Origin: Thermodesulfobacteriota bacterium
GTDB lineage: Bacteria; Desulfobacterota_D; UBA1144; Nemesobacterales; CSP1-2
DNA: 64,000 nt
Direction of reading: 5' to 3'
Assembly (NCBI GenBank): GCA_036397855.1
Contig: DASWID010000030.1
Coordinates: 1,948-65,947, forward strand
This document shows positions 739 through 60,934 of the stretch, one piece after another. Position 1 is the stretch's first letter. Each line of letters begins with the position of its first letter. Position numbers and translations under genes: made by a program. The notes under the pieces were generated by a model that saw only the letters and a program-made list of their open reading frames with translations, ran no database searches and was not told the DNA's origin.

Positions 739-1093
739 AATGCATAAAAACAGCGATTGGAGCGCGACGGGAGGCTTTTGGGCGTTTGAAGAAGTTTACG
801 ACAGATGTTACATTCTGATGAGCAAAGGGGACCGATCGGTTTTCGCTGACGAATGCTTTCCACCGTTATCTTCGTAAATGGGGAGCCAGAAATTTCTTTT
901 TAAGCAGTTCCGCATTTCGGAAAGGCTCTGCGCTCACCAGAGGCAATTTCGATTTTCTTTATTGACATGAAATTAGGCTTGTTGTACCATGGAGAATACG
1001 GCGTTTGCAGCCTAATTAGTAGTTAGCAAGCGTTGGCGATACTGCATGCGCGGCGTCAACCGCACGCGTGATATGGTTCACGAGGAGGCTTAG
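739..1093 (+). repeat. Cassette-associated element copy 0 (hairpin/T-run + promoter TTGACA-N17-TACCAT + conserved leader 'tttgcagcctaattagtagttag')
   Basis: Aligns with copies at 1700, 2440, 3340, 4018, 6790 and 7975 ('ctttccaccgtt', 'ttgacatgaaattaggcttgttgta', 'gcagcctaatt'). Confidence 0.6.
963..991 (+). promoter_or_regulatory. Sigma70-like promoter of cassette 0 (TTGACA-17 nt-TACCAT)
   Basis: -35 and -10 hexamers at the same place as in the other element copies, with a 17-nt spacer 'tgaaattaggcttgttg'. Confidence 0.5.
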
Positions 1094-1474
1094 ATGAGTA
1101 AGGCGAAGAACCGCGCTACGATTGAGGCGCTGGTGGCGGCGATCAACGGGAGAGACCACGAGGCGCTCGACAAGGTGTTCACCGAGGATGTAGCGATGGA
1201 GTGGCCTCAGTCCGGTGAGCGGATCAACGGCGGTCAAAACCGACGTGAAATCTACAGCCGCTTTCCGTCGCTCCCCAAGGTCACACCGCGGCGGATAACC
1301 GGCAGTGGCGACGTCTGGGTGCTCGAGGCAAACCTCGACTACGGCGACGGTGAGCCGTACCCGTGCGTGTTCGTCTTCGAGATGCGGGGCGGTTTGATCG
1401 CCAAGGAGGTCGCCTACTGGACGAAGCCTTTCCCGGCACCCGCGTGGCGCGCCCCGTGGGTCGAGCGCATGTAG
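1094..1474 (+). CDS. SnoaL-like / NTF2-fold small protein (ketosteroid-isomerase-like); high-GC cassette ORF
   Basis: 126 aa with RBS 'gaggagg' upstream. ~63% GC against a ~40% host. SnoaL-like features (…DKVFTEDVAMEWPQSG… EVAYW…). Confidence 0.55.
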   Translation: MSKAKNRATIEALVAAINGRDHEALDKVFTEDVAMEWPQSGERINGGQNRREIYSRFPSLPKVTPRRITGSGDVWVLEANLDYGDGEPYPCVFVFEMRGGLIAKEVAYWTKPFPAPAWRAPWVERM

Positions 1475-1699
1475 AACCCGTACCGACGCCCCCTTACTTG
1501 CTTTTAGAGTGGCTGACAGTTTTTGGAGTAGTTAAATTACCGTCCGTCCTGAGCAGGGTCGAACGGCGTAATGGTTAATAATCTATAGGAAAGGATGCAT
1601 CCCTTGACCGAGCCTGGGATGGGTGTATTCATATCCGCCGTAGAAAATAGTCTGCTTAAATACAATTGGTATAACCCCTCATCCATGCGAACTAGCACT

Positions 1700-1952
1700 T
1701 TTTGGTGCCATTGAGTAGTGCTTGCGTCCTATGGTCTCACGAACCTGATCGAGAAGTTCCTTTCTGGGTGATTTTCGATTTCCTCATCTTGACCTGAAAT
1801 CAGGTTTCTTGTATTCTGAGTACTAATTAGATTAAGCGGTGATTTGCGGTATAACATCCGCCTTCTCGATGTTATCCTGGATTTCTCGAGGCTGAATATT
1901 AGTTAGCATGACCGGCATTATCTTTATTTACTGAGATTGTAAGGAGGAGACA
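1700..1952 (+). repeat. Cassette-associated element copy A
   Basis: Conserved 'tcctcatcttgacctgaaatcaggtttcttgtattct … gatttgcggtataacatcc … cctggatttctcgaggctgaatattagttag'. Confidence 0.65.
1789..1817 (+). promoter_or_regulatory. Sigma70-like promoter TTGACC-N17-TATTCT (cassette A)
   Basis: TTGACC at 1789-1794 and TATTCT at 1812-1817 with a 17-nt spacer. Confidence 0.55.
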
Positions 1953-2432
1953 ATGAATACATCACATCGAATAATAGCAGTAATCGTGGCAGTTGGGATG
2001 GGCTTGATGGCTTGGTTCCTTGCGCAGGCGCAGGAGGGCGGGCATATTTTGCTTAACTCGGCTGATATAAAGTGGGCTGACGCGCCGCCATCGATGTCAC
2101 CGGGCGCACAGATCGCTGTGATTGAAGGGGATTTGAAAAAAGCTGAGCCCTTCGCGTTCCGCCTTAAACTCCCCGCTAATTACAAGATTCCACCACACAC
2201 CCATCCGGCTATAGAACACGTGACCGTTCTCTCCGGAACTTTCTACATGGGGGCTGGAGATCAACTCGATCAGGAGAAAGCCATAGCTTTGACACCCGGC
2301 AGTTTCGCAGCGTTTCAACCGGGGCACAGTATGTTTGCCTGGACTGAGGAAGAAACTGTAATCCAGGTGCATGGGGTTGGTCCGTGGGGGATCGATTACA
2401 TTAGCCCGGCGGACGATCCGAGAAAGAAATAA
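1953..2432 (+). CDS. Cupin-domain protein with N-terminal signal peptide or membrane anchor
   Basis: 159 aa with RBS 'aggagga'. Hydrophobic N-terminus. Cupin motifs (HTHPAIEHVTVLSGTFYMG … HGVGPWG). Confidence 0.6.
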   Translation: MNTSHRIIAVIVAVGMGLMAWFLAQAQEGGHILLNSADIKWADAPPSMSPGAQIAVIEGDLKKAEPFAFRLKLPANYKIPPHTHPAIEHVTVLSGTFYMGAGDQLDQEKAIALTPGSFAAFQPGHSMFAWTEEETVIQVHGVGPWGIDYISPADDPRKK

Positions 2433-2439
2433 CCAGAAG

Positions 2440-2681
2440 AAAAAGGGTAAGGCACCCCTTTTTCGTTGAAGATTGATGTCCACGAGTAGCTTCACCGTTG
2501 GAGAGGCAGAAGTTTCTTTTTGGGGCTGTTTTCGTTCTCCTCTTCTTGACCTGAAATTATGTCATTTATATACTGTGGGTAATCATTGGGATAAGCAATC
2601 ATTTGCAGTAAATATTACTTTTGGTAAATATAGTGCATTATTACTGATTAATTAATAGTTAGGAGCTAGAGAAACTTTTAA
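2440..2681 (+). repeat. Cassette-associated element copy B
   Basis: 'cacccctttttcgttgaagattgatgtccacgagtagcttcaccgttgga … tcctcttcttgacctgaaat'. Confidence 0.65.
2546..2574 (+). promoter_or_regulatory. Sigma70-like promoter TTGACC-N17-TATACT (cassette B)
   Basis: Same position within the element as in the other copies. Confidence 0.5.
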
Positions 2682-3182
2682 ATGGAAGGTCTAATAACAT
2701 TCGTGGTTGGAGTTGCTGTTGGCATCTTGGGGTACTCCATCACCATGAAAGTCAGTTTTAAGCAACGCACGATAGACTACAAAATACGCGTGTATGATGT
2801 CCTGATAGGCAAGTGGGTCCAAATGCGGAACCACATTTATGCTCACCACCCAGGAAACTCATCTGATAATGTCTCGTCACAGGTGATCTACCAGTTTGAT
2901 CAAATGTATGGAGAATCACAGCAGCTCATAGGTGAAGCGATACTTGTGTGCGAAGATGCTGTACTGACGAACGATATAAATGAATTAAACGAGCGAATGT
3001 ATAGAACTAAATGGCACAATCTTCCTTTGGAGCAACTGAATGAGGCTATGGAGTCGATAAAGAAGGATGCCATTTCAATTGTCTCGAGGATGAGAGAAGA
3101 CATAAAAGAAAGTACAAGATTGGAGCTGCGCGACTTCGCACATATCGCGTCTGGGTTTTGGCATAAACGGCACGATAGTTAA
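2682..3182 (+). CDS. Hypothetical protein with N-terminal transmembrane helix
   Basis: 166 aa, ORF starts directly after the element. N-terminus 'GLITFVVGVAVGILGYSI'. No recognisable domain. Confidence 0.4.
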   Translation: MEGLITFVVGVAVGILGYSITMKVSFKQRTIDYKIRVYDVLIGKWVQMRNHIYAHHPGNSSDNVSSQVIYQFDQMYGESQQLIGEAILVCEDAVLTNDINELNERMYRTKWHNLPLEQLNEAMESIKKDAISIVSRMREDIKESTRLELRDFAHIASGFWHKRHDS

Positions 3183-3339
3183 GATAAAAACGTCATTTGA
3201 AGTTCACGCCCGAGGTACCCCGAAAATGCTGGAGTTGATTGCTGACTAACTAGATGAGATAAATGTTTTGATCAAAGTAGGTAGAAAGATCGCGACAAAA
3301 TTGAACAACCCATCTACTCGACACGGTCGTCACTACTCA

Positions 3340-3522
3340 GAAGGAAGTGCCGCTTTGGGTGGTTTTTCCATCTCCTCTTCTGGAACTGAAAATAAGTTCT
3401 TTGTATTCTAAGAGCTAATTTGATTGGGCGACGATTTGCGGTATAACTTCCCTGTTTGGATATTATTCTGCATTTTTGCAGGCTAATTATTAAATGTGTC
3501 AATTGAATAAGGAGAGATTTGA
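3340..3522 (+). repeat. Cassette-associated element copy C (degenerate -35)
   Basis: 'tctcctcttctggaactgaaaataagttctttgtattctaagagctaatttgattgggcgacgatttgcggtataacttcc … ctgcatttttgcaggctaatt'. Confidence 0.6.
3381..3409 (+). promoter_or_regulatory. Promoter-like region (TGGAAC-N17-TATTCT), weak -35
   Basis: Position is homologous to the promoter of the other copies. Confidence 0.35.
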
Positions 3523-3831
3523 ATGTTAGAGCTGCGACCTACTTGTGAGCATTGCAATAAGAACTTACCACCGGTTTCTACTGAAGCAATGATTTGCAGC
3601 TATGAATGTACTTTTTGCAAAGACTGCGTTGATGAAGTTTTAGAAGATGTGTGTCCAAATTGTGGTGGCGGTTTTTGTCCAAGGCCAATAAGGCCGAGTA
3701 ATAATCTGAAAGATGATAATTACCTGGGCAAAGACCCGGCTTCCACAAAAGTTAGACATAAGCCGGTGAACATAGAAGTCCATCGTGAATTTTCCCAGAG
3801 CATTAAGAATGTGCCGCCACACGAGCGTTAA
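3523..3831 (+). CDS. DUF1272-like cysteine-rich zinc-ribbon protein
   Basis: 102 aa, 'LELRPTCEHCNKNLPP…EAMICSYECTFCKDC…CPNCGGGFCPRPIRP', matching my memory of the DUF1272 signature. RBS 'aaggagag'. Confidence 0.55.
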   Translation: MLELRPTCEHCNKNLPPVSTEAMICSYECTFCKDCVDEVLEDVCPNCGGGFCPRPIRPSNNLKDDNYLGKDPASTKVRHKPVNIEVHREFSQSIKNVPPHER

Positions 3832-4017
3832 ACACATAACAATCGGCTGCCCGCAGACTCGATTAGCTCGACGCCGTGTCGGCCACTTGCTCGGCTGTCC
3901 CGTGAATTGTCGCGACATCTCCCTGGTTCCGTCTTAGCACGAGTTCTGCAGCGAGCCGTCCGGTCTCCGCCGCCGCATTCATGAACCCGCGCGAAAAGGT
4001 CGATGGGATTGGGTGAA

Positions 4018-4345
4018 ATGAAATGCACCCCTTTTTCGTTGAAGATTACTTTGCACGAGTAACTTCACCGTTGGATGGGCAGATAATTTCCTAAATTGGT
4101 GAATTTCTATTTCCTCTCCTTGACCTGAAATTAGGCTTGTTGTATCCTGACTACTAGTACATTTAAGCAATGATTTGCAGTATAACATCCTTTTTGCATG
4201 TTGTGCTTGGTCTTTGCTTGCTAATTATAATTAGGATTCTAGGATCTTCTACATGGCAATCATCGCATGCCTGGGGTGGGGTTCTCTTGTATGAGATCCC
4301 CAAGGGCTCCCGGTTCATCGTCAGTGGTTTGCTGATGGCCCGTTT
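4018..4345 (+). repeat. Cassette-associated element copy D
   Basis: 'cacccctttttcgttgaagattactttgcacgagtaacttcaccgttgga … ttgacctgaaattaggcttgttgtatcct … gatttgcagtataacatcc'. Confidence 0.65.
4120..4148 (+). promoter_or_regulatory. Sigma70-like promoter TTGACC-N17-TATCCT (cassette D)
   Basis: 17-nt spacer 'tgaaattaggcttgttg', identical to the copy-0 spacer. Confidence 0.5.
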
Positions 4346-4819
4346 GTGAAGGTGGAATTTGTGCGCCAGTCAGACGACGGCCGAATTACGCTGGTTCTGG
4401 ACGATGTTGCTTCACCGGTGCGCTCGCTTTGGGCAGTGATGGATGATTCCGATCTGGGAGCCGCTCGAGAAGCACTTCGCAAGCGTGAACGAATTCCCGG
4501 TAACAACTCGACGCATATCGGGTCATGGTCTCAGGGAGATAACGCCCCTGAGTTGATTCTTGATCTTCCCGAATGGGTGGCATCACGTGGAGTGCGGTCG
4601 GTCATATGGTCTGCTTTACCGTCAAAATTTGAAGGTAAGAACGGACAAACCCCAACGTGTGAGCAAGTGCTTCGATATCTCAGCGGGCTGACTGGAGCAC
4701 TCCGTGATGCAGCCGAGCGCTACGTTAGCTTGGCGCCTCGCCAAATTGACACGCTGTACCGGCGTCGAATAGAAGCAGTACTTCAATGGACACCGCAGGG
4801 TCCAAACTTTGGGTCATGA
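4346..4819 (+). CDS. Hypothetical protein (GC-rich cassette ORF)
   Basis: 157 aa, ~57% GC, no recognisable family. The start may be GTG. Confidence 0.4.
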   Translation: MKVEFVRQSDDGRITLVLDDVASPVRSLWAVMDDSDLGAAREALRKRERIPGNNSTHIGSWSQGDNAPELILDLPEWVASRGVRSVIWSALPSKFEGKNGQTPTCEQVLRYLSGLTGALRDAAERYVSLAPRQIDTLYRRRIEAVLQWTPQGPNFGS

Positions 4820-5105
4820 TGCGGTTGTGGCTCTATTAATTAGTTAACGCATCGGTTAAGTTACTCGTTAGATCACGTAGATCGGTATGAAGTTTACGAT
4901 AAGGTCTTTAATGGTGGATTTTTGGTTTACAATCAATCCCACCATTTTACAAAGCCTAATATTTCAAGGGTTCATCCTAATTTTCTTCCTTGAGTTTGAA
5001 TCCATCGGTAAAATGAATTAACAGGTTTTTAAGCTTATTAATATCAAGCGATATAGATCACTTAAACGGAAACTGGTAAAGCACTGTATAGGAGATGTTG
5101 GATCC

Positions 5106-6728
5106 TTACTCGAACTTTAAACCCCAGAAGTCCTTGAACCTTTCATCAAGAAAACGGTTTCTTAATTTGCTGCCCTTAATTTTTTGAACGACAGATAAGA
5201 ATCCTTCGCTTGAATTGTTCTTTAGGGTGGAGAAAACATCCTCTAATTCAATCTTATCGATCATCTCATCAAACAGTTCCAATTCTTCAATATTTATAAG
5301 AAGTATATGAAAATCTTTCAAACCGTTAAGATGTTTATCTCTCTCTACATTTTCAAGCGCGTCTTTTATCCATGATTCATACAACGAACTAGATACGAAT
5401 GGCATGTCCATAAAAACTATACAGGGAAATACCTTTTTGTTTTTGAATTGGCTAAACTCATTATAATATTTCGGAATATCTTCTACCCTTTTGAAAATCT
5501 GCTCTATCGCATCTACAATTTTTTTGATCTCTCCTTTCACTATAAGTTCTTTATCGCCGGTCTGTCTACTTAGTAAAGCAAACTGGTTAGCCTTTGCCTC
5601 AAATAGATAGATTTTGTCTCCTCTTTCGACCCACCAGTCAACAAATTTACCTTTAGGATAATCTAACTCTGGGTGAACATTCTGCTCTCCATAGATTCCC
5701 TTTAAGATAACCCCTACATATTCTTGAAAGACATACCCGAAATAGTTTCTAAATTCTTGTTGTTGAGCTTTATCTTCAAAATAGCGATGAAATAACCAAT
5801 AAATCCCCCCAAAAGCTTTTCTAACATACGCAGACGCATTTGGCACAACAAACGGATCACCACGATGCTTTGCATCGGTTTCTATAATTGGATAAACCAA
5901 TAACGGATTAAACCTCGTCTTTGTAAAAATTGGATTCAGGTTTGCATTAAAGCGGACATCTTCGCTTTTGAAACTTTTGTAATCCGCTTTTAATATATTG
6001 AGGAAGTTATTAATTTTTTCTTCGATCAGGACATCCTTTAATTGAGGTATGTCGGCCTTAGTGAACATTGGGATGCTGAAAGTCGCTGTTCTCTTGGAGC
6101 CAGCAGCCACTGCCGTAGCGATTAGGAGATAATCGTTTATTCTTAAGCTTGTTTCCATTTCGAAAATAAGGGATAAATTTTCGAATTTCCCAGGAAGTAT
6201 TTTTTTGACCAAGTCATTAAAGATAACAAACGTTCTTGCCATCATATAAATGGGTAAGAATTGGTATTCCATTTGCTCGAAGTGAAGTCGTATCATCAAA
6301 GATCGGACCTTATCTTCGTTAGTGATTTCATAGGTTTCGGTATGCTCTGGTTGTGTGAGTGAGTTATTATAGATATTGCATAAAGCAAGCCAATTATCTT
6401 TTTCGTGTATATATTTTGATTTGTGATCATTGGCTCCAGAAATAAGCAAAAGATTCGCCAAGTAGGCCAAGGCAAATTGGCTTATTATTATCCCCGTGTT
6501 TTGTTCTCTATGAGCAGCGATGCCAATGTTATTTGGGTCCCCGCTATTGAATATGTAAATAGAAGCTTTGCCCAGAGTAATGATTCCGCCTCGCAGATTA
6601 TATCTCCTTAAAACAGTCTTCAGTTCTTCTTCAGACACTGAGCCCTCCGGTCTATTACCAAGTTCAGCAATATCGCTATCACAAGGTATTGTTATTATTT
6701 CTGGGATCATAGTGTGATTTTTCATCAA
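5106..6728 (-). CDS. Large hypothetical protein (540 aa) with a possible C-terminal PD-(D/E)xK-like nuclease motif; opposite orientation inside the cassette array
   Basis: Long AT-rich ORF (~36% GC). Segment '…FVDWWVERGDKIYLFEAKANQF…' has a D…E-A-K arrangement compatible with a restriction-endonuclease-like fold. No other recognisable domains. Confidence 0.5.
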   Translation of the reverse strand: MMKNHTMIPEIITIPCDSDIAELGNRPEGSVSEEELKTVLRRYNLRGGIITLGKASIYIFNSGDPNNIGIAAHREQNTGIIISQFALAYLANLLLISGANDHKSKYIHEKDNWLALCNIYNNSLTQPEHTETYEITNEDKVRSLMIRLHFEQMEYQFLPIYMMARTFVIFNDLVKKILPGKFENLSLIFEMETSLRINDYLLIATAVAAGSKRTATFSIPMFTKADIPQLKDVLIEEKINNFLNILKADYKSFKSEDVRFNANLNPIFTKTRFNPLLVYPIIETDAKHRGDPFVVPNASAYVRKAFGGIYWLFHRYFEDKAQQQEFRNYFGYVFQEYVGVILKGIYGEQNVHPELDYPKGKFVDWWVERGDKIYLFEAKANQFALLSRQTGDKELIVKGEIKKIVDAIEQIFKRVEDIPKYYNEFSQFKNKKVFPCIVFMDMPFVSSSLYESWIKDALENVERDKHLNGLKDFHILLINIEELELFDEMIDKIELEDVFSTLKNNSSEGFLSVVQKIKGSKLRNRFLDERFKDFWGLKFE

Positions 6729-6789
6729 ACCGTATTTCTAAGTTATTTTTTGTGAGTCTTTCTATATTTTACTCAATATATAAAGAAAG

Positions 6790-6952
6790 ACGGAAAAAGA
6801 ACGCATCACTTTTTCGTCGAAGAATGCCTTCACTGGTAGCTTCGCCATTCGAGAGGCAGAAGTGTCTTTGGTGTGTTTTCCATTTCTTCTTCTTGACCTG
6901 AAAATAGGTTTTCAGTATTCTAGGTGCAGTATTAGATGCGAGGATTATCCTG
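6790..6952 (+). repeat. Cassette-associated element copy E (short leader)
   Basis: 'catcactttttcgtcgaagaatgccttcactggtagcttcgccattcgagagg … ttcttcttgacctgaaaataggttttcagtattct'. Confidence 0.65.
6892..6920 (+). promoter_or_regulatory. Sigma70-like promoter TTGACC-N17-TATTCT (cassette E)
   Basis: Exact hexamers with a 17-nt spacer. Confidence 0.55.
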
Positions 6953-7891
6953 ATGCTAAAAGGAGCTTCAGAAAACGAAACATGGCCGAGTCTCCCTTTA
7001 GATGAGTGGAAAGAGACGTGTGCCACGCTGCACATGTGGTTCCAGATGGTCGGGAAGATTCGGCTGGCCCAGAGTCCTTGGGTTAACCATTCTTGGAACG
7101 TCACCCTCTACGTGACCGCCCGTGGCCTCACTACTTCCCCCATTCCCTATGGAACGAGGACCTTTCAGATTGATTTCGATTTTACTGATCACAAGCTATT
7201 AATTCAGTCCAGCGACGGTAGAGCTGGCTCCATTCTCCTTCGACCCTGCTCCGTCGCGGCGTTTTATAGGAAGCTCATGGAAGAGCTGAATAAGCTCGAT
7301 TTGCATCTCAAGATCAACACGAAACCAAACGAAATGCCGGACCCGATTCCCTTCGACCAGGATGAGGTGCATGCTTCGTATGATCCCGACTACGCCAACC
7401 GCTTTTGGCAGGTGCTCTTACAGTCCGATCGGGTCTTCAAACAGTTTCGAGGCCATTTCATCGGCAAGTGCAGCCCCGTCCATTTCTTCTGGGGTGCCCT
7501 CGATCTTGCTGTAACGCGGTTCTCCGGACGACCGGCACCAGAGCATCCCGGGGGAATACCCCATCTTCCCGACGCCGTAACCCGAGAGGCGTATTCACAT
7601 GAGGTCAGCAGTTGCGGATTCTGGCCAGGGGGTGGCGCGATATCATATCCTGCCTTCTACTCATACGCTTACCCGGAGCCTCACGGCTTCGCCGAAGCCG
7701 CTGTCAAACCCGGCATCGCTTTCTACAGCAGTGACTTTCGTGAATTTCTGCTTCCGTATGATGCAGTTAGAACATCCGAGTCACCCGACGACACGCTTCT
7801 TGAGTTTCTGCAGACTACGTATGACGCCGCGGCCAATTTGGGAGGCTGGGATCGTAAATCCCTGGAGCGTAGCGATACCTTGCAAGGCTAG
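6953..7891 (+). CDS. Hypothetical protein (312 aa, GC-rich cassette ORF; possibly DUF5996-like)
   Basis: ~57% GC. 'WPSLPLDEWKETCATLHMWFQMVGKIRLAQSPWVNHSWNVTLYVTARG'. The family assignment is from memory only. Confidence 0.45.
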   Translation: MLKGASENETWPSLPLDEWKETCATLHMWFQMVGKIRLAQSPWVNHSWNVTLYVTARGLTTSPIPYGTRTFQIDFDFTDHKLLIQSSDGRAGSILLRPCSVAAFYRKLMEELNKLDLHLKINTKPNEMPDPIPFDQDEVHASYDPDYANRFWQVLLQSDRVFKQFRGHFIGKCSPVHFFWGALDLAVTRFSGRPAPEHPGGIPHLPDAVTREAYSHEVSSCGFWPGGGAISYPAFYSYAYPEPHGFAEAAVKPGIAFYSSDFREFLLPYDAVRTSESPDDTLLEFLQTTYDAAANLGGWDRKSLERSDTLQG

Positions 7892-7974
7892 ACCTAATCT
7901 AAGGCGCTAAAATACATTTAGGGTTAAGCATTTAGTTCCTATTTATCGCATCGACGCTATCAGGAAAGGAGGTG

Positions 7975-8233
7975 CACTCCCTTTTTCGTTGAAGATTACT
8001 TCCCACGAGTAGCTTCGCGGACAGCACAATAAGTTTCCTTTTTGGGAGTCACAGTGGCTTAATACAGGTGGTTTTCCATTTCCTCTTCTTGACCTGAAAT
8101 CAGGATTTTTGTATTCTAGTTTTTAGTCAGATTAGGCAATGATTTGCAGAATAGCATCTCGTTTTGGTTATTATCCTGCATTTTTGCTGTCTAATTCGTA
8201 GTTATAGGGATTGAGAAGAAATGCAGGGATGAC
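7975..8233 (+). repeat. Cassette-associated element copy F
   Basis: 'cactccctttttcgttgaagattacttcccacgagtagcttcgcgg … ttgacctgaaatcaggatttttgtattct … gatttgcagaatagcatct … cctgcatttttgctgtctaatt'. Confidence 0.65.
8089..8117 (+). promoter_or_regulatory. Sigma70-like promoter TTGACC-N17-TATTCT (cassette F)
   Basis: Exact hexamers with a 17-nt spacer. Confidence 0.55.
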
Positions 8234-8824
8234 ATGAGTGTAACAGAATATTTGCTTATCGATTTTGAAAATGTTCGGCCTGATGGAATCCCTGCGATTC
8301 ATGAAAATCAAAACGTGTTTATTTTCGCGGGAGATAACCAGAATAAAATTGATTATGACCTGGTTAGAGCGACCCAGCCCTACGGAAATCGGGTTCAATG
8401 GATCAAAATTAAGGGAAGTGGGAGAAATGCCCTTGATTTTCATATTTCCTTTTATCTTGGGAAGTTATCTGCTATTCATAAGCAAGCATCGTTTTTCATA
8501 TTATCCAAAGATAAAGGTTTTGATCCGCTCATGAGGTATTTGGAAAAATCCGGAATACAATGTAAGAGAATAACTCAATTACAGGATTTTATAACAGGCA
8601 AGAAGGAGGTGGATGATGACAGTATATTTGCAAAGATACTTAGGATGCTGCTTAAGATTGATCTGACAAGAAGGCCAAAAAGAATTCGAACATTGAAGGC
8701 ATTTATCGGATCAAGGAATAAAATGGATAGTGTTAAAGTCGATAAAATTATAAAAAGATTGGCCGACGAGGAAATAATCATTTTGAATGAAGAAAAAGTG
8801 TCTTATCCGGCCGGACAAAAATGA
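8234..8824 (+). CDS. NYN/PIN-like (LabA-like) domain protein
   Basis: 196 aa. Motifs 'YLLIDFENVRP', 'SGRNALDFHI' and 'ILSKDKGFDPL' resemble NYN catalytic-core positions. Confidence 0.5.
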   Translation: MSVTEYLLIDFENVRPDGIPAIHENQNVFIFAGDNQNKIDYDLVRATQPYGNRVQWIKIKGSGRNALDFHISFYLGKLSAIHKQASFFILSKDKGFDPLMRYLEKSGIQCKRITQLQDFITGKKEVDDDSIFAKILRMLLKIDLTRRPKRIRTLKAFIGSRNKMDSVKVDKIIKRLADEEIIILNEEKVSYPAGQK

Positions 8825-8928
8825 AACCGTATAACAACCGAATCGAACTGGCAAAATTTTGCTCGTCACGTTGCTTGCTTACGCAAACGCCGCGCCGACC
8901 AGCTCGAAAAGTAAAGGTGTGAGGCCTT
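8821..8928 (+). CDS. Possible 35-aa Cys-containing peptide translationally coupled (ATGA) to the NYN-like gene
   Basis: ATG overlaps the stop of 8234-8824. Peptide MKPYNNRIELAKFCSSRCLLTQTPRRPARKVKV. Not in the ORF track because it is under 60 aa. Coordinates approximate. Confidence 0.2.
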
Positions 8929-8984
8929 GGCATGAGATTTAATTCCTTCGATAAGCTTACATAACTTCTTATCTCTTTTCGTCT

Positions 8985-9062
8985 CCTATTCTAGTCTGAA
9001 AAATAGAAAAGGGGCCACAAGCCTTTTTCGATTAAGAATGCGTTCCACGGGTAGCTTAGCCG
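8985..9062 (+). repeat. Degenerate remnant of the cassette-associated element (copy G); the promoter part is eroded
   Basis: 'ggggccacaagcctttttcgattaagaatgcgttccacgggtagcttagccgcttgagag' aligns with the 5' part of the element. Upstream, 'tctcctattctagtctgaaaaatag' is a decayed promoter part. Confidence 0.45.
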
Positions 9063-9340
9063 CTTGAGAAAAAAAGGTCGGGCTTTGTTTATTTGATTAT
9101 TTGTTAATCCAGCTCATTTGTAATATCTTTTATCTCTTTTTGCAGTCCATCATCTAACAACAGTTTCTGAGAAAATACGGACAGATACTCAATATTCCTA
9201 ATCCGCACTTCGACGAAGCTCAGTGTGAACGGTTTTTATATAAAAAAAGAAAAAGAAAATAGTGACAGCTGCCCCTTTTTCTTAACCAATGTTAGATATG
9301 AAGTGTGTTTTTTAAATTGTGATATATACTAATATATACT

Positions 9341-9805
9341 GTGTTCATTTATCGGGTGATTGAAGCACTTGAGAAAAGAAAAGTAGATTACGCTATTGCT
9401 GGTGGATATGCAGTAGCGCTCCATGGAGCAGTAAGAGGAACTGTTGATATTGACATTGTTTTACGATTTACGAAAAAGAATCTTCTTGCGGCAGAGGCTG
9501 CTCTTAGGGACGTAGGGTTGCAGTCACGTCTTCCGGTAAAAGGAGATGAGGTTTTTGATTTTCGGGAGGAATACATAAAAAATAGAAACCTTTTGGCATG
9601 GAATTTTATTAATATTTCTAATCCGACTGAATCTGTTGATATCATACTCACCGATGATTTGAGAAATTTGAAAACAAAAATAATACGCTCAGGTGAAAAG
9701 ACACTACGGGTAATTTCAATCGATGACCTAATTAAGATGAAAGCGAAGAGTAATAGAGGACAAGACTTAGAGGATATTAAAGCCTTAAGGAGTTTGAAGA
9801 AATGA
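9341..9805 (+). CDS. Minimal Pol-beta-superfamily nucleotidyltransferase (MNT-like)
   Basis: 154 aa, GTG start. 'IAGGYAVALHGAVRGTVDIDIVL' is the hG[GS]x9-13Dh[DE]h NTase motif. Confidence 0.6.
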   Translation: MFIYRVIEALEKRKVDYAIAGGYAVALHGAVRGTVDIDIVLRFTKKNLLAAEAALRDVGLQSRLPVKGDEVFDFREEYIKNRNLLAWNFINISNPTESVDIILTDDLRNLKTKIIRSGEKTLRVISIDDLIKMKAKSNRGQDLEDIKALRSLKK

Positions 9806-10047
9806 AATCAGTACAATTTTTTTCAAAAGAATATTTGGAAAGGTGTGCTTCAATGAAACCAGAACAGATCCTTCAATTTCTGGAAGATTTTAGAACCCTT
9901 CATTCTGAATCAAAAACACAAAAAACCCGTCTTATCAGCATCAAGATCCCCGAAGATTTACTTAATGCTTTCAAAGCCAAAGCAAAAGTTAATGGGATTC
10001 CATATCAAACCCAGATCAAAAGGCTGATGGCGGAATGGATGAGATAG
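9802..10047 (+). CDS. BrnA-like ribbon-helix-helix (CopG-family) antitoxin-type protein
   Basis: 81 aa, overlaps the upstream NTase gene by 4 nt. C-terminus 'RLISIKIPEDLLNAFKAKAKVNGIPYQTQIKRLMAEWM' matches the BrnA/RHH pattern (…RLD.D.L.WFKA…GYQTRIN..LR.Y…). Confidence 0.6.
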   Translation: MKSVQFFSKEYLERCASMKPEQILQFLEDFRTLHSESKTQKTRLISIKIPEDLLNAFKAKAKVNGIPYQTQIKRLMAEWMR

Positions 10048-17036: not shown

Positions 17037-17906
17037 CTACTCTATGTTTTGGACTTGTTCCCGCATTTTTTCGATTTCTGAACGAAAATCGATTATTAAA
17101 TGCGAAATGGATGCATCCTTTGATTTAGCAGAGATAGTGCCTGCCTCTCGATTCATCTCCTGTAAGAGAAAATCGCACTCTCTACCGATGGAATGATTTT
17201 TCTTGATTGTTTCATTCAATTTACTTATGTGAGCTTTAAGCCTGATGATTTCTTCTGTAATATCGGTTCGTTCGGCCATTATTGCAATTTCTTGGTTAAG
17301 TCTGCTTTCATCGAGTTGTTTATCATCTAATAGCTTGCTTATCCTGCTTTTAATGTTCTCTGAAAATGTTTTTTTAAAGTTGCCTCTTTTCGTGTTAACC
17401 CGCTTCATGATTTTTTCTAACTTTTGTATTCGACTTTTCAGATCCCTCTCGATCTTCTTCCCTTCGGAAATCCGTGCCTCATCTAGATTTCGCATCGCAT
17501 TACTCAGGGCAGTCTTTATCTTGTTTAAGTAGACCTTGCTCAGTGTCGGTTTTGATTCATGGGAGAAGAATTCTTTTATGAGTAAAACATGTTCAAGCCT
17601 GGTTTTATCTCTTATCAACAGTTCCTTCTTTAATTTTTCTAGCTTCCGAAATGAATCCTTGGCAAGTTCGATGTTCATCACGGGAGTTTTCCTTTTGAGT
17701 TCTTCCGATATCAATAAAATTCTCACCTTACCACGGATTACATGTTGCTTTATTATTTCGATTAAATCGGGCTCGATAGATAGAACAGATTCAGGGAGTT
17801 GCATAGTGATGTCTAAGAATCTATAATTTTCGGACTTTGCTTCTACTATCATTTTCCCCAAGTTTGTTTCTATTTCACTGTTTCCATACCCTGTCATACT
17901 CTTCAT
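17037..17906 (-). CDS. yicC: YicC-family stress-induced protein
   Basis: 289 aa. N-terminus 'MKSMTGYGNSEIE…AKSENYRFLDITMQLPE' is typical of the YicC N-terminal domain. Confidence 0.7.
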   Translation of the reverse strand: MKSMTGYGNSEIETNLGKMIVEAKSENYRFLDITMQLPESVLSIEPDLIEIIKQHVIRGKVRILLISEELKRKTPVMNIELAKDSFRKLEKLKKELLIRDKTRLEHVLLIKEFFSHESKPTLSKVYLNKIKTALSNAMRNLDEARISEGKKIERDLKSRIQKLEKIMKRVNTKRGNFKKTFSENIKSRISKLLDDKQLDESRLNQEIAIMAERTDITEEIIRLKAHISKLNETIKKNHSIGRECDFLLQEMNREAGTISAKSKDASISHLIIDFRSEIEKMREQVQNIE

Positions 17907-18439
17907 GCGAATTTTACCTCCGTTAGTTCCACCATGTACCTTTCTCTTAAATTTTTGAAGAGTCTCCGCAGCTTTTTTGTCCTATAATCAGGATACGTCC
18001 ACCTTAGTGGTCTGAAATCTTTCTTCATGTACACAAGGGTTAGATCAGCATATACACCTTTACCTAAATATGGGCGATGATAATATCCTTTTCCTGTAGC
18101 AAGAATCAAGTGCTCAGGAGCGATGTAACCGGGATCTATATTTATTTGTCTCCTCTCATTTGACGAAAATGACTGTTCGAGATCGTTGGTAAAATGCTTG
18201 ATTTTTACTAATTCGTCTCTTTTTATTAGCGGCTTGAAAGTGATTATAATCCTTGATAGTTCTGTGCCCATTTCATTCTCATAATATGTTGTATAGTGAA
18301 AAGGGAATTTTTCACTTACGTAATCAGCATTGCCTAATCTTTTCTCTAATCTTTTTATACATTTATCAACTCGAGCATTTTTGCTATAAATAATTCCAGT
18401 AAAAAGCTTTACTGGAACCGCTTCTTCGAGTTTGCTCAC
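17903..18439 (-). CDS. Hypothetical protein co-transcribed with yicC (DUF4416-like?)
   Basis: 178 aa, 4-nt overlap with yicC. The family assignment is an uncertain recollection. Confidence 0.45.
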   Translation of the reverse strand: MSKLEEAVPVKLFTGIIYSKNARVDKCIKRLEKRLGNADYVSEKFPFHYTTYYENEMGTELSRIIITFKPLIKRDELVKIKHFTNDLEQSFSSNERRQINIDPGYIAPEHLILATGKGYYHRPYLGKGVYADLTLVYMKKDFRPLRWTYPDYRTKKLRRLFKNLRERYMVELTEVKFA

Positions 18440-28123: not shown

Positions 28124-28630
28124 ATGGATTATGTAGTCTTTTTTCTTTTTATAATTGTGGCATTTGCTGGGCTTTTTTCGATTGTTTTGGGTTTTCCGGG
28201 AAATTTCATTATCTTCGCAGGTTCGTTATTTTATGGATGGTATTGCGATTTCAAGGGAATTACATTAGAAGTTCTCTTGTTACTTCTTATATTAGCGATC
28301 TCGGCGGAGGTTTTGGAGTTTATCATAGGGATAGCCGGTTCAAGAAAACATAGGTCCAGTAATAGGGCGATAATTGGTTCAATTATGGGTGGAATAATAG
28401 GTGCTATATTTGGTGCACCTATTTTATTTGGAGCAGGAGCGATATTAGGCGCATTTATAGGAGCATTCATCGGTGCATTTATCGTTGAATTAGTGAGCAG
28501 TAAGGGATTCGATCAGGCCGTGCAATCTGGTTGGGGAGCATTTCTAGGACGAGTGGGTGGAACGATCACAAAAGGGATAATCGGAATCACGATGATTTCA
28601 ATAGCGGTTTTCTCAGTGATTGGAGATTAA
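28124..28630 (+). CDS. DUF456-like small membrane protein
   Basis: 168 aa. Gly-rich TM segments 'GAPILFGAGAILGAFIGAFIGAF'. Confidence 0.5.
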   Translation: MDYVVFFLFIIVAFAGLFSIVLGFPGNFIIFAGSLFYGWYCDFKGITLEVLLLLLILAISAEVLEFIIGIAGSRKHRSSNRAIIGSIMGGIIGAIFGAPILFGAGAILGAFIGAFIGAFIVELVSSKGFDQAVQSGWGAFLGRVGGTITKGIIGITMISIAVFSVIGD

Positions 28631-30318: not shown

Positions 30319-30849
30319 ATGTTAAGAGTCATCTGTTGGGTCTATGCACGATTGCTTTTCTATCCAACGCTTATCTTAAATGTACTTCTGTGTAAGGTCC
30401 TTGGGCTCAGAAATTGGTATGATCGGATTGACGAATATGTAATTCTTGGTGCGCTTCCATGTAAAGACGATGTGCCCAGGCTCAAGAGGATGGGGGTTAG
30501 GGCGGTCCTGAACGTTTGCGAGGAGTATTCAGGCCCTGAAGAGGCATATGCAGCGACGGGCATAGAACAGCTGAGATTACCGACGATTGATTATACTTCT
30601 CCTTGCTTGTCAGCGGTTCGTCAGGGAGTTTGTTTTATTGAAAAGTGTGTTTCAAGGGGTGATCTAGTATATGTTCACTGTAAGGCTGGACGCGGTAGGA
30701 GCGCAACAATAATATTGTGCTGGTTGATTAAGGCCAAGAAAATTAAACCACATGAAGCAATGGATTTTCTATTGGAAAGGCGTCCACACGTGAATAAAAA
30801 ACTCGATAAAAGAAAGGTTGTCGGGGAATTTATTGCAACAGAGTTGTGA
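30319..30849 (+). CDS. Dual-specificity / tyrosine protein phosphatase
   Basis: 176 aa. Catalytic loop 'VHCKAGRGRSAT' (HCxxGxxRS). Confidence 0.7.
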   Translation: MLRVICWVYARLLFYPTLILNVLLCKVLGLRNWYDRIDEYVILGALPCKDDVPRLKRMGVRAVLNVCEEYSGPEEAYAATGIEQLRLPTIDYTSPCLSAVRQGVCFIEKCVSRGDLVYVHCKAGRGRSATIILCWLIKAKKIKPHEAMDFLLERRPHVNKKLDKRKVVGEFIATEL

Positions 30850-31295: not shown

Positions 31296-31850
31296 ATGGG
31301 AGTCAAGCCCGATCACTGGATCAGAAAAATGGCCCTAGAGCACAGGATGATTGAACCATTTATCGAGGCACAGGTGTCAAAGGGTGTCATATCTTATGGC
31401 TTGTCAGCCTATGGTTATGACATCAGGGTTAGTGATGAATTCAAGGTTTTTACGAATGTTTATAACTCGGTTGTTGATCCAAAGGGTTTTGATGAAAAGT
31501 CATTCGTATCTATAAAATCAGATGTATGCATGATCCCTCCAAATTCTTTTGCATTGGCGCGGACGGTCGAATATTTCAGGATACCCAGAAGCACGATAAC
31601 TATTTGTTTGGGAAAGTCCACATATGCACGTTGCGGGATTATTGTGAACGTCACACCATTTGAGCCCGAATGGGAGGGATTTGTAACATTGGAGATATCA
31701 AATACGACTCCGCTTCCCGCAAAAATCTATGCAAATGAAGGGATAGCTCAGGTCCTGTTCTTTGAGGCTGATGAGGTATGTGAAGTTTCCTATGCGGATA
31801 AAAAGGGTAAATATCAAAAGCAAATAGGCATAACCCCCCCAAAGCTATAG
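31296..31850 (+). CDS. dcd: dCTP deaminase
   Basis: 184 aa. '[22 protein letters not shown]…' is the Dcd family signature. Confidence 0.9.
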
Positions 31851-35302: not shown

Positions 35303-35854
35303 ATGAATAAGGAAGGAAAGAGCCTCTCCTCCCTGAAGGCTTTTTTCGGAAAACTTGTAAGAATTAGTTTCTTCGATCTCGGAATTGAAAATGAAGCAAA
35401 CATCGCTTCATATTTAACCGATTTACTTTCAGATTTTGCGAGAACAGAGAGGCTGTATAAATTTAGGGATTCTGAGGGAAGAAAAATTCAAACTGTAGTG
35501 GAGATGCTAATTAAAGATCAAAGTGAATCACAGGAAAGACCTGAATGGGAAAGGGAAATCAGAAAACACATTGGAGATTTTACCCTTTTTATATCAGGCA
35601 TCTTCAGAGATTATGTGACTAATGGCTCCTATCTTAACTATTACATGAATGAGGGTGCCAAATCCTATCATTTTGTCTCAAGATTTGACCTTGAGAAGGG
35701 TCGAGGCAATCCGATTGTATTCAGCAAACTTTCAAGGAATTTTGAATTTTACTCTGGTGCCCTAGACTACATGCGGAGGGTATACTTTAAGTCGGGAAAA
35801 ACGAGCGATCCATTCTCGACCTTCGCAACTCAAATTTCTAATATCAAGCATTAA
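35303..35854 (+). CDS. Hypothetical protein
   Basis: 183 aa. RBS 'aaggaggg'. No recognisable domain. Confidence 0.4.
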   Translation: MNKEGKSLSSLKAFFGKLVRISFFDLGIENEANIASYLTDLLSDFARTERLYKFRDSEGRKIQTVVEMLIKDQSESQERPEWEREIRKHIGDFTLFISGIFRDYVTNGSYLNYYMNEGAKSYHFVSRFDLEKGRGNPIVFSKLSRNFEFYSGALDYMRRVYFKSGKTSDPFSTFATQISNIKH

Positions 35855-47194: not shown

Positions 47195-47669
47195 TCTTGC
47201 GTTAAGCGTAGATATAACATTATTTTATTGCATGGCTTATTTACAGATAAGAAGTTCCAATCCTTAGATCGAATTCATTGATCCCGGATGTCTGCGGTTG
47301 TCGTAAACAGCGATGAACTTCTCATTCTTCCGTGGTGTATAGGTTATATATTAAAGCACGTGAGTGTTGAGTTCAGTCTTAAAGCGTTTCAATCAAACAT
47401 CATTGATTCGATTCGAATGCTACTTAAGTGTATTGGGTTCCATAAGTTTGCTTTACACGAAACACAATTTTTATAGTCTGGGTTAATTTAGCTCTATGAC
47501 TGAATTTTGATTAAATAGCCGAATATTGTAAAATAAAATGATATTCAAGTAACTTTCAACGTAGGGATTTTTACTTTTAAACATCTAAAATTCTAACCAT
47601 ACTGTCAATACAGATTTTCAAATCAAGATAGTTTTTTCATTGTGTCGACCAATAAAAAATGATCTAGTC

Positions 47670-49652
47670 ATGAAAAACGAGCTAAGAAAAAGGGTCGTAA
47701 TAGAAAATGTTAGACCTGAGATCGATTGTGGTGCTTTCCCAATAAAGAGAGTAGTGGGTGAAAAGGTTGTAGTAGAAGCCGATGTCTTTGCCGATGGGCA
47801 CGATTCAGTTTCTGCAAGTCTTCTCTATAAAGCCCCAATTGAGAAGGATTGGAATGAGATATCAATGACTTCCTTGGAAAATGACAGATGGAGGGGTGAG
47901 TTTCTTGTTGAAAAAATCGGCAACTATTATTACTCGCTCGAGGGTTGGGTCGATTATTTTAAGACATGGCAGAAGGGTTTTAAAAAGAAATTCGAAGCTG
48001 GCTATGATACAAGAGTTGAACTTCTCATAGGTGCTGATCTTATTGATAATTCGTTAAGTATTGCTTCGAAGACAGATCGAAAAAGGCTTGAAGAGCTAAG
48101 TAATATTTTAAAAGGCAACAATGTGGAGGAAGCTATATCATTTGCCCTTGGTGACGAGCTTACAAATTTAATGGACAAGAATCCCGATAAGGCTTCTTCT
48201 ACACGTTTTGAAAAAGAGTTCAGAGTTGTTGTGGATAGGCCAAGAGCGCTTTTTAGCGCATGGTACGAACGCTTTCCCAGATCTACTTCCTCTCTACCCG
48301 GTAAGCACGGTACCTTTAAAGATTTAGAAAAGTTACTACCCGAAATAGCGCGGATGGGGTTTGATGTTCTATATTTACCTCCGATACACCCAATCGGCAA
48401 GATTCACAGAAAGGGGAAAAATAATTCTTCTGATGCAAAACCTGAAGATGTTGGCAGTCCGTGGGCCATAGGGTCTGAAGAAGGTGGGCATAAGTCTATA
48501 CATCCTCAAATTGGGGACATGCATGACTTTGAATCACTAGTAAAGAGTACAATGGATTTAGGTATGGAGGTAGCAATGGATTTAGCATTTCAATGCGCTC
48601 CCGATCATCCATATGTAGGGGAGCATCCTGAGTGGTTCCGAAAGCGGCCAGACGGAACTATTCAAAATGCTGAAAATCCACCAAAGAAGTATGAGGATAT
48701 TTATCCTTTAAACTTCGAAACAGAAGACGTCCAGGGGCTTTGGGAAGAGCTCAAGAGCGTCACGATTTTCTGGATAAACAAAGGCGTTAAGATCTTTCGG
48801 GTTGATAATCCCCATACAAAAGCATTTCCATTTTGGGAGTGGCTTATAGGAGCGATAAAAAACGATTATCCCGAAGTAATCTTTCTATCCGAAGCCTTTA
48901 CTAGGCCAAAGGTTATGTACAGATTAGCGAAGATCGGATTTACCCAGTCTTACACTTATTTCACCTGGAGAAATACGAAAAAAGAATTTATCGATTATCT
49001 GACCGAACTAATACACTCAGAGGTGAGTGAATTCCTTAGGCCTAACTTTTGGCCTAATACCCCAGACATACTTCCAGAGCATCTACAGTTTGGGGGTAGA
49101 CCAGCTTTTATAATGCGGCTGGTACTGGCTGGCACACTTTCGTCCAACTATGGAATATATGGTCCTGCCTTCGAACTTTGCGAGGATGAAGCATTGACTG
49201 GAAAAGAGGAGTATCTGAATTCTGAGAAATATGCCATTAGGGAATGGGATTGGAGTACGGAGGGCAATCTAAGGGATTTAATAGCCATCTTTAATGCAAT
49301 CAGGAAGGAGAATCCTGCCTTACAATTAACAAGAAACTTAAAATTCTACCAGGTGGATAATGAGTATCTCCTCTTTTATGGAAAGGCTACAGAAGACCTA
49401 GAAAACATAATACTTGTGGTAGCTAATCTTGACCCTTTTCATACACAATCAGGATGGGTAACTGTACCGATTGAAGACTTCGGTATTGATCCTGATCAAC
49501 CCTACCTCGTTCATGATCTCTTGAGTCAGGACAAGTACATTTGGCATGGTGAGAGAAATTATGTCGAACTGAATCCTCATGTAATACCCGCTCATATCTT
49601 CAGGTTGAGGAAGAAGCTAAAAAGAGAGACTGACTTTGACTATTTCTTGTAG
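47670..49652 (+). CDS. glgE: Alpha-1,4-glucan:maltose-1-phosphate maltosyltransferase
   Basis: 'RVVIENVRPEIDCGAFPIKRVVGEKVVVEADVFADGHD' is the GlgE N-terminus, followed by a GH13 catalytic core. The ATG at 47670 is preferred over the TTG at 47640. Confidence 0.85.
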   Translation: MKNELRKRVVIENVRPEIDCGAFPIKRVVGEKVVVEADVFADGHDSVSASLLYKAPIEKDWNEISMTSLENDRWRGEFLVEKIGNYYYSLEGWVDYFKTWQKGFKKKFEAGYDTRVELLIGADLIDNSLSIASKTDRKRLEELSNILKGNNVEEAISFALGDELTNLMDKNPDKASSTRFEKEFRVVVDRPRALFSAWYERFPRSTSSLPGKHGTFKDLEKLLPEIARMGFDVLYLPPIHPIGKIHRKGKNNSSDAKPEDVGSPWAIGSEEGGHKSIHPQIGDMHDFESLVKSTMDLGMEVAMDLAFQCAPDHPYVGEHPEWFRKRPDGTIQNAENPPKKYEDIYPLNFETEDVQGLWEELKSVTIFWINKGVKIFRVDNPHTKAFPFWEWLIGAIKNDYPEVIFLSEAFTRPKVMYRLAKIGFTQSYTYFTWRNTKKEFIDYLTELIHSEVSEFLRPNFWPNTPDILPEHLQFGGRPAFIMRLVLAGTLSSNYGIYGPAFELCEDEALTGKEEYLNSEKYAIREWDWSTEGNLRDLIAIFNAIRKENPALQLTRNLKFYQVDNEYLLFYGKATEDLENIILVVANLDPFHTQSGWVTVPIEDFGIDPDQPYLVHDLLSQDKYIWHGERNYVELNPHVIPAHIFRLRKKLKRETDFDYFL

Positions 49653-49722
49653 ATTTACCAGCCATCAATTGACGAGGTCTAAAAATAGGCATGACACAAG
49701 AGGCGCATAGGGAGAATGCTCG

Positions 49723-52700: not shown

Positions 52701-53052
52701 AAGGAGACTGAAAAGATCACCCTTGAGGGACGTCGCGGGAATGATAAGGTCATTTCATTATGCTGTCTTTAATTCTTTATTCAAATATTTGTTGAGGGAT
52801 AAGAAATTCATAGAAGGCATCAAGCCATGGGCTGAAGTTTGGTATAAATTAGTCGCAGGAATTTTTTTAAAATCCTACATAGATACCGCTCGAAATGCGC
52901 CGTTTATACCGAATAACGATGAAGAGTTAGATAGAATGCTCAGGGCGTTCCTTTTGGAAAAGGCGGTTTATGAACTTGGTTACGAATTGAATAATCGTCC
53001 GAGTTGGCTGATCATACCCATTGAGGGAATCAATAATCTTCTGGAGGTTTAG
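49723..53052 (+). CDS. treS: Trehalose synthase fused to maltokinase (TreS-Mak/Pep2)
   Basis: 1109 aa. N-terminal GH13_16 ('[29 protein letters not shown]', '[13 protein letters not shown]'). C-terminal ~450 aa is aminoglycoside-phosphotransferase-like maltokinase ('[12 protein letters not shown]'). Confidence 0.85.
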
Positions 53053-53057
53053 TAGGA

Positions 53058-55001: not shown

Positions 55002-55059
55002 GGTAAAAGGGAATAATATTTTTCCCCTCTCATCATATGCCTGTCCCGTTATCCAGTGC

Positions 55060-55210
55060 CAGCCGACTGATAATATTTTCTGCGAGTAATAATGTTTATG
55101 ATGCTTCGACAGGCTCAGCATGAATGGTTTTGTTCGAATACCGTTCGCACTGAGCCTCGGCTGAGCAGTGAGCATGTCGAACTGTCGAAGTGCTTGGTCG
55201 AAGGGCATTA
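55060..55210. repeat. REP/BIME-like palindromic repeat cluster downstream of glgB
   Basis: 'gcttcgacaggctcagcatgaatgg … ccgttcgcactgagcctcggctgagcagtgagcatgtcgaactgtcgaagtgcttggtcgaagggc'. Same family as at 10535 and 15775-15940. Confidence 0.6.
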
Positions 55211-60902: not shown

Positions 60903-60934
60903 GCTGGTGAACCGTATATGGTAACCTTTATGGT

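Follow-up and report, generated by a model that had tools for sequence, protein, structure and literature searches.

The closest described counterparts of the protein examined here are two anti-phage proteins, GAPS1 and Upx. GAPS1 (WP_005477165.1) is a single protein encoded in a mobile island of Vibrio parahaemolyticus that protects E. coli from several phages. Its defence is abolished by the substitutions D313A and K328A in its C-terminal PD-(D/E)xK domain, T7 escapes it through mutations in the capsid protein Gp10, and co-expression of Gp10 with GAPS1 arrests growth without killing, a state of dormancy. E. coli homologs just 24-29% identical to GAPS1 still defend (Mahata et al., bioRxiv 10.1101/2023.03.28.534373). 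Upx is a protein of ~1,270 amino acids (aa; the deposited chain has 1,212 residues) that has a C-terminal D1161/E1176/K1178 core and is activated by phage terminase (PMC13099982, PMC13601566). Here we describe a gene on the minus strand (5106..6725) of a 64,000-nt stretch of contig DASWID010000030.1 from a Thermodesulfobacteriota bacterium; this whole stretch is hereafter called the window. The gene lies in a repeat-punctuated array of cassettes, and we estimate a probability of about 0.65 that its 539-aa product is an anti-phage immune protein of the GapS1-like superfamily that acts alone, as both sensor and effector.

The only NCBIfam model to match the protein is NF047931 (antiphage_GapS1), with an E-value of 2.5e-19 and 69.5 bits. 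The alignment pairs residues 131-504 with profile positions 77-441 of 455, and because it begins at residue 131 it covers part of the N-terminal domain considered below. The same model is matched at 25-102 bits by 19 of 20 other members of the clade, including plasmid-borne ones, and none of these reaches the curated cut-off. Since the scores are significant but fall below the cut-off in both the protein and its relatives, the clade is, as judged from these profile matches, a sister clade within the GapS1-like superfamily and not GapS1 proper.

The likeness to GapS1 extends to organisation. Both are single-gene systems without an obligatory partner gene, are homologous over most of the protein, carry a PD-(D/E)xK domain toward the C-terminus and have spread horizontally in mobile or defence regions. 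In addition, the predicted catalytic residues D363 and K378 are 15 positions apart, the same spacing as that of the essential D313 and K328 of GAPS1, and lie near the expected profile positions. In contrast, the window protein exceeds the 455-position profile by ~85 aa, and the model leaves its residues 1-130 uncovered. The hosts also differ, being uncultivated lineages (Ca. Dadabacteria, Patescibacteria, Brocadiales and Acidobacteria) rather than the Gammaproteobacteria that carry GapS1, and the window gene occupies a repeat array beside an rRNA operon, whereas GapS1 resides in a GMT island. Finally, the activity and trigger of GapS1 are experimental, whereas the window protein is known from its sequence and a structural model.

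A reading of this DNA made from its letters alone (hereafter the sequence-only reading) had noticed a D…E-A-K motif (FVDWWVERGDKIYLFEAKANQF) and proposed a restriction-endonuclease-like fold, and both proposals hold. The motif, D363-x12-E376-A-K378 (FVDWWVERGDKIYLFEAK), is encoded at 5592..5639 of the minus strand, with the codons for D363 at 5637-5639, E376 at 5598-5600 and K378 at 5592-5594. Among 224 aligned relatives, D363 is conserved in 100%, E376 in 98% and K378 in 96%, a degree of conservation by which the motif is far beyond chance. Other residues of the core are similarly constrained (Y336 100%, E483 98%). Alignment with hhalign places the motif on the literal P-D…E-C-K of a cyanobacterial sister clade.

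An AlphaFold2 model of the whole protein, computed from a 67-sequence alignment, has a predicted local distance difference test score (pLDDT) of 93.8 and a predicted template modelling score (pTM) of 0.92. Secondary structure assigned with DSSP delimits a nuclease core at residues ~322-484 (5274..5762, minus strand), comprising a helix (322-345), two strands (364-368 and 371-381), a helix (392-416), a strand (431-440), a helix (450-464) and a strand (475-478), after which a helical tail closes the protein. The model thus displays the alpha-beta-beta-beta-alpha-beta core that defines the PD-(D/E)xK superfamily, with D363 opening beta2 (364-368) and E376 and K378 within beta3 (371-381). A Foldseek search of the PDB returned Upx (9wuf) as the top match (E=1.6e-4), followed by R.BspD6I, N.BspD6I, Can2, BstEII, Cdn1, Shedu, NucS and Hjc, all of which are PD-(D/E)xK enzymes. 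These matches are limited to the generic core, with template modelling (TM) scores relative to the query of ~0.2. No significant match was obtained by Foldseek against BFVD, and neither phmmer nor a profile search matched any PDB sequence.

The N-terminal domain (residues 1-320; 5766..6725, minus strand) is mostly helical in the model. The sequence-only reading could recognise no domain in the N-terminal ~350 aa, in agreement with a Pfam scan of the protein, which gave no match. When the N-terminal 320 aa are modelled separately, the pLDDT is 93.1, and in a Foldseek search of the PDB Upx alone matches, marginally (E=0.07, TM 0.34). Several of its residues are strongly conserved among the 224 relatives (Q151 96%, R164 98%, N273 98%, P279 100%). 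By its model, then, the N-terminal domain is novel, yet well folded and conserved, and we propose that it is a putative sensor or regulatory domain.

Upx is therefore the best structural match, and it too combines a large sensor region with a C-terminal PD-(D/E)xK nuclease in one protein. However, Upx exceeds 1,200 aa, with an N-terminal domain, a middle domain and a C-terminal domain and two nuclease-like domains, whereas the window protein has 539 aa and a single core. Relative to the query, Upx reaches TM-scores of only 0.29 with the whole protein and 0.34 with the N-terminal domain, and the profile search of PDB sequences revealed no sequence-level similarity to Upx. The window protein lacks the features that define Upx, which the structural comparison suggests is an analogue in logic and at most a remote structural relative.

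The gene is intact. Its open reading frame (ORF) runs uninterrupted over 5106..6728 of the minus strand, as seen in the ORF list and the translation. The ORF finder placed the start at a TTG at 6728, one codon upstream of an ATG at 6725-6723. The latter is likely to be the start codon because it yields 539 aa, the length of the closest homologs, with the stop codon at 5108-5106. An identical protein is annotated at 539 aa on ENA contig k141_1886728 (assembly ERZ27256991, 106 kb), to which the window belongs. Comparison with a copy from a Ca. Dadabacteria metagenome-assembled genome (MAG) gives 0.64 synonymous substitutions per site (dS) and 0.09 nonsynonymous substitutions per site (dN). The resulting dN/dS of 0.14, which is similar in both domains, indicates that the gene is under purifying selection and functional. 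A pseudogene or decaying gene is ruled out by the full length and this ratio.

The sequence-only reading described the gene as an orphan, a view that the homology searches overturn. A word-indexed search found 103 homologs, mostly full length (523-608 aa) and 34-95% identical, with a tail at 25-29%. A profile built from 67 homologs and run against 1.84 billion representatives of clusters formed at 50% identity matched 3,366 clusters at E<=1e-3, 1,734 at E<=1e-10 and 401 at E<=1e-30. Nearly all homologs are named 'hypothetical protein', and their sources include Ca. Brocadiales, several Patescibacteria and Pyrinomonadaceae. A single-protein scan of GTDB representative genomes gave one match, the Ca. 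Dadabacteria MAG, at 82% aa identity, and a search from the most GapS1-like member, P0200, gave 5 proteins. Distant relatives are carried on three cyanobacterial plasmids, of Nostoc, Geminocystis and Kovacikia. A search from the Nostoc plasmid homolog led to the unnamed cyanobacterial sister clade noted above, which is homologous to the present clade over its whole length (hhalign probability 100%, E=2.9e-42, 477 columns). No homolog is encoded in 50,697 phage genomes searched by tblastn. Four homologs (P0063, P0067, P0068 and P0145) carry an extra SEC-C/SWIM-type zinc-binding motif, located N-terminally in P0063 and C-terminally in P0145, and the window protein has no such motif.

Homologs are solitary, in that the genes adjoining different homologs are mutually unrelated. 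A two-gene system was considered and is ruled out, because the genes directly downstream of homologs are unrelated to one another. Several neighbourhoods hold defence or mobility genes. Homolog P0082 (locus L010) is found with a PLD/SNF2 helicase, a type IIG restriction-modification enzyme, an SMC-like gene with PDC-M68B, a Schlafen/Aga-like gene and DarT/DarG. P0058 (L008) accompanies an integrase, a D5 primase, Fic and AbiEi/AbiEii, while P0068 (L009) lies with an integrase, DUF4238, NYN and a type IV secretion system pilin, and a DUF433/DUF5615 toxin-antitoxin pair is close to P0013 (L003). The neighbours of P0047 (L004), P0056 (L005) and P0096 (L011) are uninformative. The contexts include an island with DarTG, type IIG restriction-modification and PDC-M68B, AbiE genes with an integrase, and plasmids. 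Together with the GapS1 match, these islands and plasmids uphold the earlier proposal of a defence-type or mobile cargo gene, with defence activity as a prediction from sequence.

If the protein is an immune sensor and effector, the helical N-terminal domain (~320 aa) would keep the C-terminal, Mg2+-dependent PD-(D/E)xK nuclease (D363/E376/K378) inactive until a phage-derived cue is recognised. For GAPS1 the cue is the major capsid protein, and for Upx it is the terminase. Recognition would release the nuclease, which might then cut nucleic acid and bring growth to a halt through dormancy or abortive infection, such that phage production would be blocked.

Several observations weigh against this assignment. 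The score of 69.5 bits is far under the curated cut-off of 320 bits and leaves the protein outside GapS1 proper, so that GapS1 function is not simply transferable. The equivalence of D363 and K378 with D313 and K328 derives from spacing and profile coordinates, not from a residue-level alignment, and the target and mechanism of GAPS1 itself are not established in the literature. Scans of the protein with PADLOC 2.0.0 (2023) and PHROGs were empty, the other cassettes of the window match no defence gene recognised by PADLOC, and the neighbourhoods of L004 and L005 show nothing related to defence. For the gene itself, a simple promoter scan gave no promoter, and a Shine-Dalgarno sequence is absent ahead of the ATG.

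The nuclease fold could also belong to a solitary restriction-type or nicking endonuclease, or to another DNA-processing nuclease, whose N-terminal domain would read a DNA sequence or structure and which would cut foreign DNA directly instead of sensing a phage protein. The Foldseek matches to R.BspD6I (probability 1.00, TMt 0.44), N.BspD6I and BstEII and the canonical triad speak for such an enzyme. However, the likeness to R.BspD6I and N.BspD6I (type IIS/nicking), as well as to the CARF nuclease Can2, is confined to the PD-(D/E)xK core (Foldseek probability 0.93-1.00, with 8-11% identity and TM-scores as low as noted above), and the window gene has neither a methyltransferase partner nor a CARF domain. 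Neither the window nor eight of the nine other contexts examined has a neighbouring methyltransferase, and the one in L010 belongs to the complete type IIG enzyme. Moreover, the N-terminal domain matches no DNA-recognition fold, and GapS1 is the only family identified at the sequence level. We consider a solitary restriction enzyme improbable for these reasons, and an immune sensor related to GapS1 remains the better description of the protein.

The gene does not travel alone. A block of ~1.9 kb (5008..6937), consisting of its 3' flank, the gene, its 5' flank and two modules of the array repeat (A and B, described below), recurs in other genomes. By blastn it is 83.5% identical in nucleotides over 1936 nt to the Ca. 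Dadabacteria MAG (L001) and 93.7-94.1% identical over ~1919 nt to four small contigs (L013-L016). Its boundaries in the window are 5008/5011 and 6921/6937; homology ends at the same two points, and the neighbours differ on both sides. The block and its modules at 6800-6922 run counter to the sequence-only reading, which saw no conserved element belonging to the gene. In L001 and L013-L016, the block is flanked immediately by the rRNA operon (plus a small ORF) on one side and by the first repeat on the other. Its gene is transcribed away from the cassettes, and a Cas4-like PDDEXK_1 gene follows. In the window, five other cassettes precede it and DUF5996 follows. The idea that the gene was inserted into the array therefore describes its mid-array position in the window, but not the relatives, in which the gene heads the array adjacent to the rRNA operon. 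From these alignments, the gene evidently is a modular unit that moves with part of the array repeat.

Exchange of the block was probably horizontal. The 23S rRNAs of the window genome and the Dadabacteria MAG are 88.9% identical, a distance at which vertical descent implies saturated synonymous sites, whereas the block is 83.5% identical with a dS of 0.64. This argument depends on sound junctions between 23S and array, as metagenomic joins next to rRNA genes may be chimeric. The Cas4-like PDDEXK_1 cassette of L001 (1435-2340) matches PADLOC Aga_Cas4-like_Nuc (E=5.5e-18).

The array itself occupies ~830-9100 of the window. Its repeat is present at 1700-1915, 2440-2665, 3290-3500, 4015-4240, 6800-6952 and 7965-8215, with partial copies at 830-1035 and 9000-9075, and a unit precedes each plus-strand cassette gene. 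The unit has three parts. A conserved box of 60 nt, CCCTTTTTCGTTGAAGA…CACGAGTAGCTTC…GGCAGA, makes up module A. Module B, which follows a T-rich tract, is a sigma70-like, promoter-like element, TTGACC-17 nt-TATTCT. The leader that forms module C has an imperfect hairpin and a T-run (attenuator-like) and terminates in CTAATTA·TAGTTAG. Each cassette gene thus seems to possess its own putative promoter and a shared leader. Within the mobile block, modules A (…CACTTTTTCGTCGAAGAATGCC…GGCAGA) and B occupy 6800..6922 of the plus strand (repeat families D2 and D4; promoter scan match at 6893-6921). They diverge from the 5' end of the GapS1-like gene and face the next cassette, DUF5996 (6953-7891), which they would drive as a putative promoter; modules A and B are likewise arranged in L001. 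To the left of the block, a lone copy of the 3' end motif of module C (CTATTAATTAGTTAACG; 4832..4848, plus strand), recognised by eye from the module C ends CTAATTAGTAGTTAGCA and TTAATTAATAGTTAGGA, directly follows the preceding cassette ORF (4346-4819) and possibly marks a cassette junction.

Among the array repeats, the GapS1-like gene is the sole substantial gene on the minus strand, as the sequence-only reading had it; the other minus-strand ORFs within ~830-9100 are short and overlap plus-strand genes. It is also the largest gene of the array, in accord with the remark that it is very large relative to its neighbours. The accompanying description of the gene as AT-rich applies only in part. 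At 36.4% GC it is AT-rich beside its neighbours, but not for the window (41.1%), whose housekeeping genes span 36-44%, and the outliers are instead the flanking cassettes at 52-64%. These are a SnoaL-like gene (1094-1474; 64%), a cupin/DUF4437 gene (1953-2432; 52.5%), the 157-aa ORF of unknown type that precedes the block (4346-4819; 54%) and DUF5996 (54%). By composition, with the genome at 41%, these four cassettes look recently acquired from GC-rich donors.

The array lies directly downstream of the rRNA operon (23S end) in the window genome, the Dadabacteria MAG and three further metagenome contigs (L001, L012, L017, L021, L022); in the loci checked, Rfam revealed no 5S rRNA following the 23S. 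Where an integron array would adjoin intI, the left flank here comprises a 199-aa gene with the 23S rRNA beyond it. Pfam identified no integrase in 39 ORFs of the window and one ORF of the left flank, with five ORFs of 168-184 aa away from the array (28124-28630, 30319-30849, 31296-31850, 35303-35854 and 17903-18439) set aside as largely unscanned. An integrase elsewhere in the window was likewise rejected, none being present among the ORFs scanned. An attC site is an imperfect inverted repeat (R''-L''…L'-R') that has a GTTRRRY core and folds as single-stranded DNA. GTTAGCA, GTTAGGA or GTTAGGC-like cores close module C, which also has an imperfect hairpin, and the z-scores of its single-stranded DNA fold relative to shuffled sequence are +0.6 to -1.3. 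As it folds no better than shuffled sequence, the repeat is probably not attC, and it was rejected as a known RNA, because Rfam was empty at the gathering threshold and at E<=1. The array was also considered as a defence island, which the PADLOC result for the other cassettes rules out.

The array can be compared with the integron cassettes that carry phage-defence genes (bioRxiv 10.1101/2024.07.02.601686, 10.1101/2024.07.02.601719). In both cases, small cassettes of foreign composition are arrayed with a conserved repeat between them, and a compact defence-type gene is carried among them as a module. The window array differs in that no integron integrase was found and the repeat does not fold like attC. 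It differs further in that each cassette has a promoter-like element of its own and the rRNA operon anchors the array from the upstream side.

The position of the gene in such an array raises the question of whether it serves the array rather than the cell. Toxin-antitoxin cassettes stabilise sedentary integrons and are often reverse-oriented. A toxin-like addiction gene of this kind would fit the reverse orientation of the GapS1-like gene, its possession of its own flanks and its retention in three versions of the array, and the array also holds a nucleotidyltransferase/CopG-type toxin-antitoxin pair and a PIN7 gene. Yet no antitoxin-like partner is conserved beside any homolog, sixteen metagenome contigs carry the array repeat but no GapS1-like gene, and the family resides mostly outside such arrays. 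A role in stabilising the array is accordingly a rather remote prospect.

It is very unlikely that the protein serves this integrase-less array as its nuclease for recombination or maintenance, acting in an intI-like role from an intI-like position. Such a role would account for the location of the gene in L001 and L013-L016, where it occupies precisely the interval from the rRNA operon to the first repeat and points away from the cassettes, for the lack of an integrase among the window ORFs scanned, and for the constant presence of modules A and B in the block. However, the arrays of L017 and L021 are headed by other genes and contain no homolog, and in the window the gene lies in mid-array. 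Most family members, moreover, belong to candidate phyla radiation bacteria, Brocadiales, Acidobacteria and cyanobacterial plasmids without such a repeat; the exact repeat core is absent from L003-L006, the search covering those loci and not L008-L011. Conservative site-specific recombination is also not a known activity of PD-(D/E)xK enzymes. That the protein is a RecB-, Cas4- or NucS-like nuclease with a housekeeping task in repair or recombination is scarcely credible, since a weak resemblance to NucS, Hjc and Bax1 in Foldseek and some metabolic contexts are set against a patchy phyletic distribution, variable synteny, evidence of horizontal transfer and no repair-family match in Pfam or NCBIfam.

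The assignment to GapS1-like immune proteins links a family of several thousand clusters of 'hypothetical proteins', with statistics and a confident model, to validated defence nucleases. It would extend this type of system to Ca. Dadabacteria, Patescibacteria, anammox bacteria, Acidobacteria and cyanobacterial plasmids, and it provides an intact, well-folded candidate for learning what a GapS1-like N-terminal domain senses. As a gene, it is an incremental and fairly ordinary find, being a distant relative of a known single-protein PD-(D/E)xK defence system. The array that carries it, with its rRNA-adjacent location, a promoter-like element per unit and no integrase in sight, is more unusual and merits its own analysis. 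A bolder interpretation, which we regard as speculative and on balance doubtful, is that the ~540-aa clade, rather than being a mere variant of GapS1, forms a family of single-protein immune sensors in its own right, and a very widespread one, with at least 401 clusters at 50% identity that score E<=1e-30. The N-terminal fold of this family, new and remotely shared with Upx, would respond to a different phage cue, and in this lineage the gene would be shuffled as a cassette of an undescribed integrase-less, promoter-per-unit, rRNA-anchored array, a new platform for stocking nuclease and defence genes.

Other features were recorded within and around the array. The last repeat-preceded cassette is the PIN7-domain gene (8234-8824), and a pair composed of a DUF6036-type nucleotidyltransferase and a CopG/BrnA-type antitoxin lies at the right edge (9341-10047). 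Right after the DUF1272 and PIN7 stop codons are GC-rich stretches led by ATAACAA (3832-3920 and 8825-8930) that resemble the 5' half of an integron attC, and no 3' half was found by eye. To the right of the array, intergenic DNA contains two-copy direct repeats at 9171-9214/10506-10549 (80%) and 10758-10815/15701-15758 (76%), one of which includes the inverted repeat GTGTCACGAG…CTCGTGAC.

In related arrays of three genomes, a conserved 81-aa ORF (MLKRFS·P·ETKEY…) is located between the 23S end and the array head (L001 4441-4686, L017 4411-4656, L021 2911-3156). It is absent or degenerate in the window genome, where the 199-aa gene, which has no Pfam match, takes its place. Besides the Cas4-like gene of L001, nuclease-like or defence-like cassettes of other arrays include two in L017, an ORF of 328 aa that shows a D…EVK motif (3276-4262) and one of 222 aa whose FLDISGF motif is cyclase-like (1395-2063), both judged by eye. 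The rest of the window is housekeeping, with gyrB, mutL, secDF, pheS, efp and GlgE-pathway genes. Repeat family D5 is explained by six GH13-family genes at 47640-63745 (GlgE, TreS/Mak-like, GlgB-like and isoamylase-like), which reflect ordinary glycogen and trehalose metabolism.

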